Shown here: positions 18,526 through 64,000 of the stretch, piece by piece
How positions within the stretch are numbered: position 1 is the stretch's first letter
How the letters are laid out: each line of letters starts with the position of its first letter
NCBI GenBank assembly: GCA_002706065.1
Contig: PAJM01000020.1
Location: 16,033 to 80,032, forward strand
Direction: 5' to 3'
Length of the DNA stretch: 64,000 nucleotides
From: Methanobacteriota archaeon
Lineage (GTDB): Archaea > Thermoplasmatota > Poseidoniia > Poseidoniales > Poseidoniaceae
Notes under the pieces: model-generated
The model's input: the letters and a program-made list of their open reading frames with translations, nothing else
Database searches by the model: none
What the model was told of the DNA's origin: nothing
Program-made: the position numbers and the translations under genes

Positions 18526-18550
18526 TCACAATAGTTGTTCGGCCATACAA

Positions 18551-18557
18551 TAATATA
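18551..18557 (+). promoter_or_regulatory. TATA-like box for the His/Asp-tract surface protein gene
   Basis: TAATATA within the AT-rich TAATATACAAATTATT, centred about 26 nt upstream of ATG 18580. Confidence 0.35.
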
Positions 18558-18579
18558 CAAATTATTCTTGTTGCAAGAT

Positions 18580-20904
18580 ATGAGAAAAGCACTTGCTCTT
18601 GTCCTCACTAGCCTTTTGATTGCAACAACCCTCCCAACAAGTGTTGCTGCAGATGAACCAGAACCTATTGCTTGGGGTATCGAATACGATTATTCAAACT
18701 TGAACACCGACATCGCTTCGATGATTGGAATTGACTTGCAAGAAGTCTTCCAAGAGGTTATGGCTGCTGGAGATGACTCGGGACTAGATCTTCTCATTGG
18801 AAGCGTAACCAGTGGTTCAACTACCATCGTCTTCGAACAATACGATGGCCCACTGACCACGTTGGATGTCGACGGGACACCAACCGATTTCTCAACCAAG
18901 ATGACAGAACTCACTGTACGTCACGGTCTGTTGGACGATTTTGCTGTCCACTCCGAATGGAGTGATTCATACGGTGGAATCGATCTCACAATTGGCTACG
19001 ATGCTGAGCAACTGTTCAATGCTGATGTCCTTTACACAGAGTACTTCGACTCCGCAATGGGTCTTCATGGAATGGATATGGAAATGGAAATTGAAGCAAT
19101 GATTGAGTACAATGTGGGTGTCACTGGAGAGATTTCTGGCGACGGAGAAACACTGCCATTCGATATTGATTTGACACTCGGCACCTCGTTTGACATCAAC
19201 AACGGACTGCTTGAGGTCCGCATGGATGAAGCATCGTCTATGTACAACGAGATGGCAGACCTCCAACCTGGAGAAAGCCTGCTCTGGTCTTGTGGAGATG
19301 ACCATGACGACCACGATGACCACGGCGACCATGATGACGACGGCAACCATGATGACCATGGCGACCATGATGACCATGATGACCACCATGGAGAGGTTGA
19401 ACTTACGGACCAATGTTCAGAGAGAAACATCCATTACGAAACAGAGACCTCTGTCTTGTTTGAATTAACAGGTATCCCAACAGAAGAGCTCGGTCTTCCT
19501 GCAGGCGACTTCGACTTCACAATTTCTGATACCGTCACCGACATGTACGATGGTGACGTCGAACTTTTCTTCATGGGAGGTGCGATGGAACTGCTCGATG
19601 AACCAACGCAGATGATCACCATCAATGATGGAAGCACCATCGAAGTTCACCAAGCGTATGCATCTCCGACTCCAATCGCCTTCCCTGCTATGTGGGCCAT
19701 GATGTGGGCCAACTCAGTCGTAGGTAGTGGTGATTACCCAGGTATTGTAGACGCTCTTCTCAGTGACGAAAACTTTGAGGAGATTTTTGGTGGTTTGACA
19801 GATGATTTTGGAGAGGATGATGAAGAAGACTACTTCATCTGTGCAAACCTCAATGAAATTCCATACGAGTATGTCGAGGACGGTTACGATGACTGTGGTG
19901 ACAACTCCGATGAAGAGTTCGTTTGCGATGATGGAGATATCATCCCCGGCGGCTGGGTAAATGATGGATGGGAGGATTGCACAAACGGTGAAGATGAAAC
20001 CAGTGATCAAGCAGAATCTGTTTATGTCTATGTTTACATGAACGGTGCAAGTGAATCAGAAATGAACTTTGATTACGAAGTGCAGGGCATGGAATACGAT
20101 GAGAATTACGAGATTTCTTGGACAGTCACCGATGATGAAGGAACCACATCCGATGCAGGTTCCACTGCCGTTACAGATGGATCGTACAGTTCTTACGACA
20201 GTGCTAACGCAGAAATCAATGGGTTTGGCGAGTACTGTGTCGACATCGAGGTCACCCGTTTGAGTGACAGTGAGGTTGTTGGCAACCAACAAGAGTGCGA
20301 CTCGGTTTCACAAGATATGGAGCCGAGTGAGCGACTCGTGACCATTGTCGAAGCACTTGCAGAATCGACATTGGATAACACCATGGAATCCTTTGGACAA
20401 AACCTCGAAAACCGTTTGTCCAACTTTGAGGATGATTATGACGTTGCATACGAGGATGGTATGGTGTACGCATTGTATGATGATTCTACCAACCGATTTG
20501 TTGGTTTCCAGTTGGTTGCTTCCCCCGGTGGCACACAGTGGTACACGCTTATTGGACCAGATAGCTCTGCTTACGGTACACCTTCGCGAGGTCTCTCTGT
20601 GACCTACTTCACTGGTATTGACGCAGTCGAGGAAGCCCAAGAAATCGAGGACCAAACCGATTTGACCGACCTCGTCGATGTAACGCAACACAACACCGAA
20701 GATGTTGAAGCAGTCAACGAAGGTATTGATCCTGCTACGCTCCCCGATCAGCCGATCAGTGAAGGAAACGACGAAGAGGCATCTGAAGAGACCTCCGAGG
20801 AAGATCTATCCAGCTTGCTTCCGTTCCTATCACCAGTAACCACTCTGGCCATGATTGCACTTGCAGGAATGTTTGTATCAATCCGTTCTAAGGACGAAGA
20901 ATGA
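18580..20904 (+). CDS. acidic secreted protein with (Asp/His)n tract and two 2-Cys LDL-receptor-A-like Ca-binding modules; C-terminal TM
   Basis: Start moved to 'MRKALALVLTSLLIATTLPTSVAADE' (signal peptide). HD tract 'DDHDDHDDHGDHDDDGNHDDHGDHDDHDDHH'. Modules 'FICANLNEIPYEYVEDGYDDCGDNSDE' and 'FVCDDGDIIPGGWVNDGWEDCTNGEDE' lie at nt ~19834-19995. C-terminal 'LPFLSPVTTLAMIALAGMFVSIRSK'. Confidence 0.7.
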   Translation: MRKALALVLTSLLIATTLPTSVAADEPEPIAWGIEYDYSNLNTDIASMIGIDLQEVFQEVMAAGDDSGLDLLIGSVTSGSTTIVFEQYDGPLTTLDVDGTPTDFSTKMTELTVRHGLLDDFAVHSEWSDSYGGIDLTIGYDAEQLFNADVLYTEYFDSAMGLHGMDMEMEIEAMIEYNVGVTGEISGDGETLPFDIDLTLGTSFDINNGLLEVRMDEASSMYNEMADLQPGESLLWSCGDDHDDHDDHGDHDDDGNHDDHGDHDDHDDHHGEVELTDQCSERNIHYETETSVLFELTGIPTEELGLPAGDFDFTISDTVTDMYDGDVELFFMGGAMELLDEPTQMITINDGSTIEVHQAYASPTPIAFPAMWAMMWANSVVGSGDYPGIVDALLSDENFEEIFGGLTDDFGEDDEEDYFICANLNEIPYEYVEDGYDDCGDNSDEEFVCDDGDIIPGGWVNDGWEDCTNGEDETSDQAESVYVYVYMNGASESEMNFDYEVQGMEYDENYEISWTVTDDEGTTSDAGSTAVTDGSYSSYDSANAEINGFGEYCVDIEVTRLSDSEVVGNQQECDSVSQDMEPSERLVTIVEALAESTLDNTMESFGQNLENRLSNFEDDYDVAYEDGMVYALYDDSTNRFVGFQLVASPGGTQWYTLIGPDSSAYGTPSRGLSVTYFTGIDAVEEAQEIEDQTDLTDLVDVTQHNTEDVEAVNEGIDPATLPDQPISEGNDEEASEETSEEDLSSLLPFLSPVTTLAMIALAGMFVSIRSKDEE
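19297..19389 (+). repeat. coding GAY/CAY low-complexity tract (31 codons of Asp/His/Gly)
   Basis: gatgaccatgacgaccacgatgaccacggcgaccatgatgac... read directly from the sequence; it is in frame within the 18580 CDS. Confidence 0.85.
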
Positions 20905-21839
20905 GCGACGACATAGGGTCACGACCGATCGCTCGCTGGCGCATTATCGCCTCGCTTGCCCTTGTTGCTCAGATTGCAATCTTGATTGCATTCAAGGCAG
21001 CACTTGAGGAAGGAAGCTGGTTTGTTGGATCGATATCTACTACGGTAGACGAAGGCCCGCTGATGCTTGAGGGAGTTGCTGCAAACGTTTCCATTGATAT
21101 GAAAAACGAACAGGATGATGTGCGTGTCGAATTCTTTGGATATCTCCGACTCACTCATTGGCAAGACGAGCGGGACGAACGTGCTACTCTTTCTGTAGAG
21201 GAAGCTGGGGATTACGAGGAGAACTTGGATGAGACGTTTTCAAGTCCAACGCCAAGTACAGTCAAATCAACAACGATGACGCTCCTTCATATCGGAATCG
21301 GATTTTCGTTCCTCCTCATTATATTGATTGGAATTGATTTGAAAAACCAATCGAGCAGTAGCCTTCTGACAACGTCCAGGCGATGCGTTTCACTCGCTTC
21401 AGTACTGAACACATTGGCGGTTCTCCTTCTGATTCTTCTTATCTTACCCGCATCTTGGTTCGGAACGGTTGTAGGTAATCCTCAGGACTTCTCAAATGGT
21501 CAGGAGAACGAGGCTTTCCTTGCTCATGCCCAATTTTCAGAAGAAACAAGCATTGGACTTGATGGCTTTGTCCTTGAATTTGAAGTGAGCGGATACGATA
21601 TTGGTATGATCCGTCCTGCAAATCGAAGTGCGGTTGAGGCTGAACCTCCTCTACCTGGGAGTCCAGATGCTGATTCGTTCATTTCAATGCGTGGTGACAT
21701 GAGGACTGAGACCCCAGAATACATCTCTGAATTTGTATTCTACTGGATCTTCCTTTGGGTCATTCTTCCGTTCGCACTGTTGATTCAGCAACGCGTTGCC
21801 ATCGATTCGCGTCTTCGTCCATTACACGTGCATGAATGA
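20901..21839 (+). CDS. polytopic (about 4 TM) membrane protein, translationally coupled to the HD-tract protein
   Basis: 312 aa with an ATGA start/stop overlap with the upstream gene. Hydrophobic segments: 'WRIIASLALVAQIAILIAF', 'LLHIGIGFSFLLIILIGI', 'LASVLNTLAVLLLILLILPASWF' and 'FVFYWIFLWVILPFALLI'. No recognisable family. Confidence 0.55.
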   Translation: MSDDIGSRPIARWRIIASLALVAQIAILIAFKAALEEGSWFVGSISTTVDEGPLMLEGVAANVSIDMKNEQDDVRVEFFGYLRLTHWQDERDERATLSVEEAGDYEENLDETFSSPTPSTVKSTTMTLLHIGIGFSFLLIILIGIDLKNQSSSSLLTTSRRCVSLASVLNTLAVLLLILLILPASWFGTVVGNPQDFSNGQENEAFLAHAQFSEETSIGLDGFVLEFEVSGYDIGMIRPANRSAVEAEPPLPGSPDADSFISMRGDMRTETPEYISEFVFYWIFLWVILPFALLIQQRVAIDSRLRPLHVHE

Positions 21840-22628
21840 TTATTGCTCAGGTAATGTTCCATTCAGACTGTCAGGATTGTCTTCAAGTGGACCCCAAACT
21901 GTCTTGGTTCGTGCAAGGCCGAAGCGTTTTGCATAGAGGAATCGTAGGTTTTTCCACCCATCTCCCCACGTGTGGATTTCTGCATCCCCAACACGTTCGC
22001 GATAGGGGACAGAGATTTCGATTGCTTTCTTCCTGCCAAGGTGCTTCCTTGCTAAAATTTTGATTTCCTCTGAGAGTGGCATTCCGTCGTTGGTTGGGCG
22101 CATCTTCGGGTTCTCAAAAATGGATTTCCTGAACACCCACATGCCCGACTGGGAATCTTTGATACCGTATCCAAAGAGAAGTCGAGCGTTGAACGATAGG
22201 ACCCAGTTTCCAAATCCATGGAGACCTGACATTGACCCATCTTCAGCCATGCTTAACCGATCACAGGTAATGAAGTCGAGATCATCATCCAAAAGGCGTT
22301 TTACCAGTTCAGGAACAAGTTCCGCAGGATAGGTACAGTCAGCATCCATTGTCACGATGATGTCGTTTGAGGCTACGGCAAAACCCGTACGATAAGCACG
22401 GCCGTAACCCTTGCGAGGTTCGAGGTGCACTCTGACATCTTTTTCCAACGCAATTTCTCGTGTTCGATCGGTCGATGAACCATCAACAATCATGATTTCC
22501 AGCGATTCACACCATCCACGTGGGATAGCATCGACGGTTGCTCCGAGTGCTTCCTCTTCATTCCGTGTGGGAAGAAGGACAGTAACAGAGACTGGTAAGA
22601 CTTCGTCCATGTTATGTCGAAAGGTCAT
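21840..22628 (-). CDS. GT2 glycosyltransferase, dolichyl-phosphate mannose/glucose synthase-like
   Basis: 'VSVTVLLPTRNEEEALGATVD', 'IMIVDGSSTDRTREIA', 'KGYGRAYRTGF' and 'IIVTMDADCTYP' (DxD). Confidence 0.8.
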   Translation of the reverse strand: MTFRHNMDEVLPVSVTVLLPTRNEEEALGATVDAIPRGWCESLEIMIVDGSSTDRTREIALEKDVRVHLEPRKGYGRAYRTGFAVASNDIIVTMDADCTYPAELVPELVKRLLDDDLDFITCDRLSMAEDGSMSGLHGFGNWVLSFNARLLFGYGIKDSQSGMWVFRKSIFENPKMRPTNDGMPLSEEIKILARKHLGRKKAIEISVPYRERVGDAEIHTWGDGWKNLRFLYAKRFGLARTKTVWGPLEDNPDSLNGTLPEQ

Positions 22629-62065: not shown

Positions 62066-64000
62066 TCATTCGTTTCGTCGAATGAATGCAGCTCCGAGGA
62101 GTGCAAGCATTCCAACGATTCCAGTGAACCCTGGTGCATCATGCATTGGGTTTTCATCGCTGTAGGCATCTGCGGAGATGGAGTACAAACGAACTTCGTC
62201 CCAATCAACATCGGTTTCACCAATGTGAATCATGTCACCTGCGGAGATTGTTCCTGAACTGTCAGCATCGTGGAACATGAGAGTGGAATCCATTTCAGCA
62301 TCTGCGATTGTGATGGACATTTGGGACGTGCACGTCTTGGTTTCTTCACCAGTGTCCATGTCATAGTCGTAATCGCATGATGCGAGTTCAATCTTGTAGT
62401 CGGACATATCTCCTTCGACGAAGTCTAATTCAGATTCGATGTAAAATACCATCTCGTCTGAATCTTCTCCATGTTCTTCACCATGGTCGTGGTCATCATG
62501 GTCGTCTCCATGGTCGTCGTGGTCATCATGATCGTCTCCATGGTCGTCGTGGTCATCATGATCGTCTCCATGGTCGTCGTGATCACCATGATCGTCTCCA
62601 TGATCGTCGTGATCATCATGGTCATCACCGTGGTCATGGTCATCATCCATGTCTAGCATTTCATCGTCGCCATCAGGACAATCTTCAGCCCCATCATTGA
62701 CTTGTGAAATCCATACTTGACTTCCATCCATGCAGTCAAACCAGTTGATTTCATTGCCATCACTGTCGTATTGCTGCTCATCAGCACCATCTGCACAGTC
62801 AGATTCGCCGTCGTTGACGTAATCGAATGGAATTTCTGTTCCATCGCCACAAATGAATGTAATTTCTACTAGATCATCTCCTCTCGAAATACATTCCCAG
62901 CCAGTATTGTCTGATAACTCAGTACAATCCTCGATTTCATAACCATCACTCATCATTATTTCGCCGTCAGAATCCAACCAATCATTCATCCAACATTCCA
63001 AGGGACTGTCATCTGGATCGCTGCTTTCTGTACAGCCATCATAGAATATCATGTCTTCATAATCATCATCACTCAATCCTGAAAGAACGAGATAGATGTA
63101 ATCAAATTCATCTTCTGAGAGATTTTCATCCACATCGTCATCCGCAAAATCAAACAAATCTTGCAAACCGATGTCGTCAACATCCATGTCATAGCCATCG
63201 TTGGCGAGGTCCATCTCTACACAATACAGAAGTTCATCGTAGTCGATGAGCATATTTCCATCTGTGTCACATTCTGTAAATTCTCGGTAGAATGTCCACA
63301 TCTCGTCGTCATCCATGCCGTCTTCGTCCTCTCCGTTGGTACAGTCTTCAACACCATCGTTGACCCAGTCCATTGGAATTGTGAAACCATCATCGCAGGT
63401 AAATTCATCTTCACCCATCGAGTCTTCGTCTTCTCCACCTGAACAGTCTTCCATTCCATCATTTACCCAATCCATTGGGATAGATTCGCCATCGTCGCAG
63501 ATGAATTGGTCATCGGAGCCCCATGGATCGAGTTCGTCAGAAACCGTGAACGGAAGAGCAACAACTTCACCAGCATCAACGCCTGTGAAAAGTGAGTTAA
63601 CCCTGTCATCAGTGAGAACGTACATTTTCATTACAGTAAGTTCCTCTCCCATTTCGTCCATTGCCATTTCGAAATATTCGATTTCACCAGCATTGTTGAA
63701 TGCAATCTTCATTGCCGGCATTTCATCAACATCGCCGTCGTCGTGATCATCATCGTCACCATGGTCGTCGTCATGCCCATAATATTCGTCAACAGCCTCA
63801 ATAAATGCTCCGAGTTCGTCAACAGTGAGTTCACCATCAGCATCAGCGTCAGCATCGTCAAAGGCTGTTTGCATAGCAGTCATTGAATCTTGTTCGGTGT
63901 CATCAACAGTCATGAATTCTTCAAATGAAACGCCTCCGCTGCCATCAATATCGGCAACACACAAAGCCATTTCCGGGGATGGAGCATCATCGTTCATACC
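62066..64000 (-). CDS. acidic surface protein (paralog of 18580-20904): EF-hand-like loops, four 2-Cys LDLa-like modules, expanded (Asp/His)n tract, PGF-CTERM; 5' end probably beyond the window
   Basis: Modules: 'FICDDGESIPMDWVNDGMEDCSGGEDE', 'FTCDDGFTIPMDWVNDGVEDCTNGEDE', 'FICGDGTEIPFDYVNDGESDCADGADE' and 'FDCMDGSQVWISQVNDGAEDCPDGDDE'. The HD tract is 61 aa (nt 62465-62647). EF loops 'DIDGSGGVSFEE' and 'DADADGELTVDE'. The C-terminus is 'PGFTGIVGMLALLGAAFIRRNE'. No signal peptide follows the first in-window Met, and the frame is open to nt 64000. Confidence 0.7.
   Translation of the reverse strand, partial: GMNDDAPSPEMALCVADIDGSGGVSFEEFMTVDDTEQDSMTAMQTAFDDADADADGELTVDELGAFIEAVDEYYGHDDDHGDDDDHDDGDVDEMPAMKIAFNNAGEIEYFEMAMDEMGEELTVMKMYVLTDDRVNSLFTGVDAGEVVALPFTVSDELDPWGSDDQFICDDGESIPMDWVNDGMEDCSGGEDEDSMGEDEFTCDDGFTIPMDWVNDGVEDCTNGEDEDGMDDDEMWTFYREFTECDTDGNMLIDYDELLYCVEMDLANDGYDMDVDDIGLQDLFDFADDDVDENLSEDEFDYIYLVLSGLSDDDYEDMIFYDGCTESSDPDDSPLECWMNDWLDSDGEIMMSDGYEIEDCTELSDNTGWECISRGDDLVEITFICGDGTEIPFDYVNDGESDCADGADEQQYDSDGNEINWFDCMDGSQVWISQVNDGAEDCPDGDDEMLDMDDDHDHGDDHDDHDDHGDDHGDHDDHGDDHDDHDDHGDDHDDHDDHGDDHDDHDHGEEHGEDSDEMVFYIESELDFVEGDMSDYKIELASCDYDYDMDTGEETKTCTSQMSITIADAEMDSTLMFHDADSSGTISAGDMIHIGETDVDWDEVRLYSISADAYSDENPMHDAPGFTGIVGMLALLGAAFIRRNE
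62481..62640 (-). repeat. tandem 30-bp coding repeat (at least 4 near-identical units, encodes HDDHDDHGDD)
   Basis: Plus-strand units are (a/g)tcgtctccatggtcgtcgtggtcatcatg at 62501, 62531 and 62561, and a unit at 62591 with 2-3 substitutions. Degenerate copies flank them. Confidence 0.85.

Follow-up and report, generated by a model that had tools for sequence, protein, structure and literature searches.

The calcium module of the LDLa type (low-density lipoprotein receptor class A; PF00057), known from LDLR, VLDLR and LRP2 and usually deemed an animal invention, is closed by three disulfides linking Cys I to III, II to V and IV to VI. In LDLR repeat 5 the calcium ion is held by the carbonyls of Trp(0) and of the residue at +5, and by the side chains of Asp+3, Asp+7, Asp+13 and Glu+14. 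A minimal relative of this module was found in a pair of adjacent genes, here called A and B, of the Poseidoniales (Marine Group II), uncultured archaea that are among the most abundant of the surface ocean and whose cell surface is, to our knowledge, essentially uncharacterised. The pair lies in a 64,000-nucleotide stretch of contig PAJM01000020.1 (assembly GCA_002706065.1, positions 16,033 to 80,032 of the forward strand; hereafter the window), which belongs to a metagenome-assembled genome (MAG) of 1.89 Mb in 45 contigs that is 83% complete. Gene A (18580-20904, plus strand) encodes a hyper-acidic type I surface protein of 774 amino acids, and gene B (20901-21839, plus strand) a protein of 312 amino acids with four transmembrane (TM) helices. 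With a probability of roughly 55%, A-B is an order-wide, single-copy, fast-evolving two-gene unit of the Poseidoniales which encodes an exposed, Ca2+-stiffened surface complex. Its novelty is that a one-disulfide LDLa module, predicted to be Ca-dependent and used as a minimal, interchangeable insert, sits in an uncharacterised, order-specific protein pair.

Protein A carries two LDLa-like modules, FICANLNEIPYEYVEDGYDDCGDNSDEE (residues 419-446; 19834-19917, plus strand) and FVCDDGDIIPGGWVNDGWEDCTNGEDE (residues 447-473; 19918-19998, plus strand), with exactly two Cys each (Cys421/Cys439 and Cys449/Cys467). A search of A by hmmscan with the Pfam model Ldl_recept_a (PF00057), as proposed in an earlier note on this DNA, gave 23.5 bits (E 6.5e-5) over two stretches, just below the gathering cut-off of 24.1. 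In a six-frame search of the genome the same model scored 23.8 bits on A, or 28.3 bits with both modules summed, and many A orthologs already bear precomputed PF00057 labels. The alignment spans profile positions 5-8 to 34-36 of 37, with F-x-C, I-P, W, D-G-x-x-D-C and S-D-E in exact register with the profile.

A separate profile was made from 13 aligned modules of this genome and of distant homologs, with no animal sequence included. Seven positions are invariant in this set (C6, D19, G20, D23, C24, D29 and E30) and four nearly so (F4, G9, I12 and N18); at position 16, 11 of the 13 modules have W or Y, and the remaining two L and Q. Searched against the PDB, the profile recovered LRP2 (2e-113), VLDLR (1.5e-30), LDLR (2.9e-23) and glucosidase II beta (2.8e-12), together with factor I and CD320; among the 60 matches listed were almost exclusively LDLa-bearing chains, with one weak exception. 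In the alignments to LRP2 the archaeal Cys correspond to Cys II and Cys V, Asn occupies the site of Cys IV, and the site of Cys III, just before I-P, has a residue other than Cys. Both modules of A keep the cage spacing of LDLR repeat 5 exactly (aromatic residue at 0; Asp at +3, +7 and +13; Glu at +14). Given this ligand spacing and the alignment with Cys II and Cys V, two whole disulfides have apparently been lost, while one native pair and the full Ca cage were kept. Judged by their sequences, the modules are homologous single-disulfide relatives of LDLa and not a chance acidic motif, as the description of Ca-cage modules with only two Cys in the earlier note had it; they are predicted to bind Ca2+ and to form the disulfides Cys421-Cys439 and Cys449-Cys467.

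The archaeal modules resemble their animal counterparts in the string F-x-C-x2-G-x2-I-P-x2-W-x-x-D-G-x2-D-C-x2-G-x-D-E, which is in register and includes all Ca-cage positions, and in their tandem arrangement in extracellular proteins. They differ in the lack of Cys I, III, IV and VI, so that all 13 aligned modules have two Cys apiece in place of the six Cys and three disulfides of LDLa; in their archaeal host; and in being optional inserts of a protein that is otherwise unrelated to the LDLR family. The G2B domain of glucosidase II beta (PDB 5f0e_B, 5hjo_B, 7kbj_B) is matched by the archaeal profile in two stretches and presumably shares the V-N-D-G motif with Asn at the site of LDLR Cys IV. 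It is, however, a eukaryotic domain of the endoplasmic reticulum lumen with another Cys pattern, and serves for docking of the catalytic subunit.

Of 301 genomes sampled from the phylum, 49 had PF00057 matches above the cut-off, every one of them a member of the class to which the window belongs; 228 of the sampled genomes gave no match, and none of 14 control genomes reached the cut-off. Some genomes contain 13 matches, and one open reading frame (ORF) of 1,597 amino acids carries many. A degenerate DNA pattern for N-D-G-x2-D-C-x2-G-x-D-E was found in at least 120 contigs of GTDB genomes, overwhelmingly Poseidoniales MAGs of the Poseidoniaceae and Thalassarchaeaceae. The earlier note had named no described family of such minimal form. 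A search for literature on LDLa in Marine Group II, Poseidoniales or archaea yielded nothing relevant, in line with that statement, but the one-disulfide module, real as it is, is already captured by the databases under PF00057.

Modules of the type N-D-G-x2-D-C-x-D-G-S-D-E were also seen in contigs of marine Flavobacteriales, of Crocinitomicaceae and of a Bacteroidetes single-cell genome (L035, L043 and L065). Their Cys pattern is different, e.g. C-x7-C-x14-C-V-P, and from their sequences LDLa-like modules look real in marine Bacteroidota, too. Short contigs with A-family-like sequence assigned to a Yoonia MAG (L080) and a Synechococcus MAG (L083), and a contig of an Acidimicrobiaceae MAG (L064) that resembles a second module-bearing gene at the end of the window (see below), are probably mis-binned Poseidoniales contigs. 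A contig of a Gammaproteobacteria MAG (L112; GC content 0.63) encodes VNDGVCDCCDGSDE, which we take to be a motif of the glucosidase II beta type; it may be either eukaryotic contamination or a bacterial homolog.

With profiles of both proteins applied to all fetched loci, B was located directly downstream of A in 22 out of 22 loci that hold the 3' end of A. This set comprises 13 full-length and two partial orthologs of the genus plus seven loci with a divergent A (25-31% identical), six of them in other families of the order and one in the same genus. In at least 11 further genomes, coordinate cross-reference placed B next to a PF00057-bearing ORF of 580-1,124 amino acids. Of 151 genomes of the class, 69 have B, always as a single copy, and all 69 belong to the order. 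The identity of A orthologs is 68-96% throughout the genus and falls to 25-31% in other families of the order. The surroundings of the pair do not vary within the genus: a gene for a giant beta-helix/PKD protein is followed by A, B and then a convergent gene for a glycosyltransferase of family 2 (GT2).

The start and stop codons of the two genes overlap by ATGA (20901-20904, plus strand), as read directly from the sequence. The same overlap was present in nine of the ten genus junctions read, with TAATG in the tenth, and gaps of 3-16 nucleotides separate the genes outside the genus. The coupled 4-TM gene had been put forward as a partner of A, and this agrees with its constant position. Stoichiometric co-expression, which the same note had derived from the overlap, fared less well: the overlap exists but is confined to the genus, and at most hints at such coupling.

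In one genome of the same genus (L029, G017:C133:1-3702), a module-less A of 29% identity and a diverged B occupy the usual position beside a GT2 gene whose product is 95% identical, and both genes appear to have been replaced together as a whole cassette. At a Thalassarchaeaceae locus (L030, G037:C1:315842-322857), the A homolog is split into four consecutive ORFs next to an intact B, reflecting either a pseudogene or indel errors in the assembly.

Asp and Glu make up 23.8% of the residues of protein A, Lys and Arg 1.7%. Its start was set at the ATG at 18580, not at the upstream TTG at 18535, because all orthologs begin at the same signal peptide (MRKAL/MKRTI, with a Met-Arg/Lys-Lys start). 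This Sec-type signal peptide, MRKALALVLTSLLIATTLPTSVAA (18580-18654, plus strand; hydrophobic segment at residues 4-24), is conserved in all orthologs and is probably cleaved before the following DE. The structure of A was predicted with AlphaFold2 (AF2) from an alignment of 46 sequences; the mean predicted local distance difference test score (pLDDT) was 67, with a disordered loop and linker. The N-terminal domain (approximately residues 26-365; 18655-19674, plus strand) was modelled as two helices followed by antiparallel beta-strands of 25-30 residues (pLDDT ~80-86) and is 82-89% identical among orthologs. The modules are followed by an immunoglobulin (Ig)-like beta-sandwich (residues 482-576 with Cys553/Cys573; 20023-20307, plus strand; pLDDT ~80), a genus-specific insert similar to the Ig-like domains of glycoside hydrolase family 2 enzymes (Foldseek, E 2e-4). 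A C-terminal alpha/beta domain (residues 582-720; 20323-20739, plus strand), which is kept across the order, leads to a C-terminal TM helix (residues 743-768 by hydropathy) with a short charged tail (LLPFLSPVTTLAMIALAGMFVSIRSKDEE; 20806-20904, plus strand). A contains eight Cys, arranged in four local pairs (238/279, 421/439, 449/467 and 553/573). As distant homologs have no Ig-like domain and contain zero, one or two modules, the conserved core of A consists of the N-domain, the C-domain and the TM helix.

When the full model of A was compared with the PDB and BFVD by Foldseek, the Ig-like domain was the only part that matched solved or viral predicted structures. The LDLa-like modules were the only part with PDB sequence relatives in a profile search, and for the N-domain neither a credible Foldseek match in PDB or BFVD nor a PDB sequence homolog was obtained. 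For perforin, pneumolysin and the S-layer protein 7ptp, the Foldseek probability did not exceed 0.15. A class II fusion protein, a pore-former-like fold and a LolA/TULIP-like lipid-binding fold had been considered for the long-stranded N-domain and were dropped, as no credible Foldseek match was found.

Protein B has hydrophobic segments at residues 10-37, 123-149, 160-194 and 274-301. Since its basic residues are located at the N-terminus, in the TM2-TM3 loop and at the C-terminus, the two acidic loops of ~80-90 residues are placed outside the cell and both termini inside. The AF2 model (pLDDT 64) contains four TM helices and two beta/alpha ectodomains, and hydropathy and AF2 were concordant on the topology of both A and B. 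No relative of B was detected in Pfam, NCBIfam or the PDB, Foldseek gave no significant structural neighbour, and a BLAST comparison of its two halves revealed no internal duplication (E 1.2). Its homologs are annotated merely as 'hypothetical protein [Candidatus Poseidoniaceae archaeon]'. With claudins and TARP proteins B shares four TM helices and beta-strands contributed by both extracellular loops, and Foldseek placed a chain of an AMPA-receptor complex with TARP gamma-5 closest to it (probability 0.8). This match is not significant (E 0.17, TM-score 0.28), however, and the ectodomains of B are much larger and have no sequence motif in common with those proteins.

In its arrangement the pair recalls SlaA/SlaB of the Sulfolobales and the ArtA-processed PGF-CTERM proteins of Haloferax, in that two neighbouring genes of the same orientation code for an exposed protein and its partner in the membrane. 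The genome also encodes an ArtA homolog, and distant A homologs end with PGF-like tails. The likeness does not extend to sequence or fold: A has its own TM helix, no sequons for N-glycosylation and no PGF-CTERM match, and B is a 4-TM protein and not a coiled-coil stalk, which makes the comparison one of analogy only. The features of an archaeal S-layer protein were likewise absent from A, which has no sequons and whose sole S-layer structure match was 7ptp with a probability of 0.14.

A hypervariable loop of A extends from Cys238 to Cys279 (19291-19416, plus strand); both Cys are nearly invariant and probably form a disulfide. Among 121 ortholog clusters (68-96% identity) the loop is 8 to 46 residues long, in distant homologs 3 to 38 residues, and its identity among orthologs is 44% as compared with more than 80% in the flanks. 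In the protein encoded in the window it contains the His/Asp tract DDHDDHDDHGDHDDDGNHDDHGDHDDHDDHH (31 amino acids, residues 240-270; 19297-19389, plus strand). The earlier description of a surface protein with an (Asp/His)31 tract between Cys was confirmed: the signal peptide and the C-terminal TM helix mark A as membrane-anchored, and the tract lies between Cys238 and Cys279. The DNA that encodes the tract repeats GATGACCAT / GATGACCATGGCGACCAT in tandem and can be described with a period of 9 (GATGACCAT; 9.9 copies) or of 18 (4.6 copies; 87% matches, score 122). His-rich loops were present in ten of the 121 clusters, where the loop is 28-46 residues long; the loops of the remaining clusters are acidic and unrelated in sequence. 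On a tree calculated with the loop masked, the His/Asp state changed at least six times (gains or losses), all six changes being forced by well-supported branches. AF2 predicted the tract to be disordered (pLDDT ~30).

The tract arose by expansion of a repeat within a hypervariable loop; it is an accessory and not a conserved functional site. The earlier note had proposed a high-capacity metal site and had named absence or high variability of the tract in orthologs as the observation that would speak against it. Exactly this was observed: the tract is absent from ~90% of the clusters, in a loop of variable length whose DNA is a tandem repeat and whose state changed repeatedly. The tract probably binds divalent cations, which is chemically plausible, and represents at most an accessory cation-binding patch. 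It had been over-read, as chemical plausibility and co-occurrence with loop expansions in ZnuA are all that speaks for a metal site. Models of the ZrgA/ZnuA type scored far below their cut-offs on A (PF10986, 11 bits vs 27.4; NF047873, 18 bits vs 185); the matches cover only the tract, and the scores are therefore compositional.

The sequences show directly how the two proteins are built, that their genes stay paired, that the modules are homologous to LDLa, and that the tract is a variable repeat. From these findings the following picture of the surface complex, the most economical one, can be drawn. Protein A would be exported by its Sec signal peptide and retained by the single C-terminal TM helix, and its core, made of the beta-rich N-domain and the C-terminal alpha/beta domain, would bear three interchangeable inserts: (i) a disulfide-closed hypervariable acidic loop; (ii) zero to two single-disulfide LDLa calcium modules that would act as a hinge between the two core domains; (iii) an Ig-like domain, in this genus only. 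At the Ca2+ concentration of seawater (~10 mM) the modules would be permanently loaded, and one disulfide of the Cys II-Cys V type together with the Ca cage could substitute for the three disulfides of animal LDLa to yield a stiff, acidic hinge. The Trp/Asp pocket of the module might receive basic side chains (Lys or Arg) of a ligand, in the manner of LDLR-family receptors. With its two acidic ectodomains, B would most likely be the membrane-embedded partner of A, either as base or as co-receptor. In a few lineages slippage would have generated the 9/18-nucleotide coding repeat that expanded inside the hypervariable loop as the His/Asp tract. The exposed parts of A-B would vary quickly through gain and loss of inserts, repeat slippage and replacement of whole alleles, a pattern typical for surface proteins pressed by viruses or grazers. 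The complex would be under diversifying selection, with viruses or grazers as the putative selective agent, and may bind ligands. Since neither protein has relatives of known structure, the pair offers a defined starting point for work on the envelope, on adhesion or on virus receptors.

Several observations weigh against this picture. AF2, run without ions, gave a low pLDDT of 43-56 over residues 420-480, and the fold of the modules and their disulfides are predicted from sequence. It is gene order alone that suggests physical contact between A and B. There are no N-glycosylation sequons in the 774 residues of A, unlike in typical archaeal envelope glycoproteins. Finally, His/Asp tracts were gained in this one loop repeatedly, which could point to selection on the tract and not to neutrality.

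The alternative that survives best, although we regard it as rather unlikely, holds that the His/Asp tract is a neutral, functionless low-complexity expansion and that A-B is a ligand-free structural component of the envelope. It would account for the tandem-repeat DNA, the patchy distribution and varying length (28-46 amino acids) of the His-rich loops and the predicted disorder, and the acidic loop of every ortholog would always offer GAT/GAC-rich DNA for slippage. Neutrality is harder to reconcile with at least six independent changes of state that converge on the same composition, and with the co-occurrence of His/Asp tracts elsewhere in the same genomes; a ligand-free role of A-B, with the retention of the aromatic and acidic ligand-docking residues of LDLa in the modules.

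A second alternative assigns the tract a role as trace-metal antenna: in some species it would be a surface patch for Zn, Ni, Co or Cu which, together with tracts of ZnuA and of a lipoprotein with EF-hands and LDLa modules, concentrates metal for uptake. The genome encodes a solute-binding protein of the ZnuA family (PF01297, 67 and 131 bits) that is split over the contig ends G000:C1:1-1271 (minus strand) and G000:C14:2-1279 (plus strand), the assembly having probably broken at its repeat. Loops of DDHDDHGDD repeats, several hundred residues in size, and an EF-hand-like segment are inserted in this protein, presumably at the site where studied ZnuA proteins have their His-rich loop. Protein A resembles ZnuA in having a flexible, disordered His/Asp-rich stretch on an extracytoplasmic protein, and the ZnuA of its own genome shares the repeat. 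It differs in having neither the ZnuA fold nor a detectable link to a transporter, and in the absence of the tract from most orthologs. A pattern coding for DDHDDHGD had 22 matches in this genome, 12 in a second one (G022) and zero to six in the other genomes, as opposed to zero matches of the reversed pattern in 41 genomes. These two genomes are at the same time the only ones of 16 in the genus that have a His/Asp loop in A. This coincidence, the giant ZnuA loops and the repeated gain of the tract at the same exposed loop are in favour of an antenna. Yet the tract is missing in ~90% of the orthologs in which A, B and the modules are conserved, its DNA is a slippage-prone repeat, the ZrgA/ZnuA-type matches of A (11-18 bits) are far under the cut-offs, B resembles no known transporter, and the link between the His/Asp loop of A and the His/Asp load of the genome concerns two genomes only and is not a correlation. 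Short His/Asp tracts moreover occur in three ORFs for membrane proteins, at G000:C11:11403-13676 (plus strand), C3:58241-60289 (minus strand) and C40:25052-26506 (minus strand), which by eye resemble NuoL, V-ATPase subunit I and a cytochrome oxidase subunit. Such tracts beyond surface proteins suggest a lineage-wide mutational or compositional habit. The antenna is held to be improbable.

The bolder proposal that parallel DDH/DHG repeat expansion in the ZnuA loop, the EF-hand/LDLa lipoprotein and the A loop has created a cell-surface network for capture of zinc or trace metals that feeds ZnuABC in a few Poseidoniaceae, and that, independently, A-B is a conserved core of the Poseidoniales envelope and the main virus receptor, is speculative and equally doubtful. 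If such a network exists, it would let cells in oligotrophic seawater scavenge metal by a route that is driven by repeats and can evolve rapidly. Lastly, that the LDLa resemblance is convergent, i.e. a non-homologous acidic Ca-loop motif (TSP3 or EF-hand-like DxDxDG), is very improbable: although only two of six Cys are kept in a short (~27 amino acids), acidic module that AF2 does not fold confidently, PF00057 is covered in exact register over nearly its whole length, the two Cys that remain match the sites of Cys II and Cys V, and the archaeal-only profile ranks LDLa chains almost exclusively among the 60 matches listed.

A second gene for a module-bearing surface protein is found at the end of the window as a 5'-truncated ORF (62066-64000, minus strand); in the genome it occupies G000:C20:78098-80734, which corresponds to an extension to ~64700 outside the window. 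The complete product is hyper-acidic, comprises 868 amino acids and contains four LDLa-like modules (PF00057, 54.8 bits), EF-hands and two His/Asp tracts, one of them ~60 amino acids long. With the two modules of A, the count of six module copies in the window given in the earlier note is correct. A lipobox-like N-terminus (LLLAGC) and a PGF-CTERM-like tail (19.8 bits vs a cut-off of 24.5) indicate that this paralog may be anchored at both ends. The gene downstream of it encodes a soluble protein of 501 amino acids, by eye a fusion of Nudix and metallo-beta-lactamase domains, and not a 4-TM protein. For this reason B is assigned to the A family and not to the module; conservation of the 4-TM gene beside paralogs, which the earlier note had named as a check, applies to the A family but not to the paralog of the window.

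The tail of A had no match to the PGF-CTERM model (TIGR04126) at E values up to 10. The archaeosortase A homolog of the genome lies at G000:C17:92413-93264 (minus strand; TIGR04125, 91.7 bits vs a cut-off of 75), and PGF-CTERM processing is likely to be available in the host organism. The GT2 glycosyltransferase gene near the sequon-free A extends over 21840-22628 of the window, and the product of gene B has three N-x-S/T sequons, two of them within the ectodomains. Upstream of gene A, an AT-rich, TATA-like element (caATAATATAcaaa) was noticed in the region 18540-18579, ~25-30 nucleotides 5' of the ATG, a position that would fit a leaderless or short-leader transcript.

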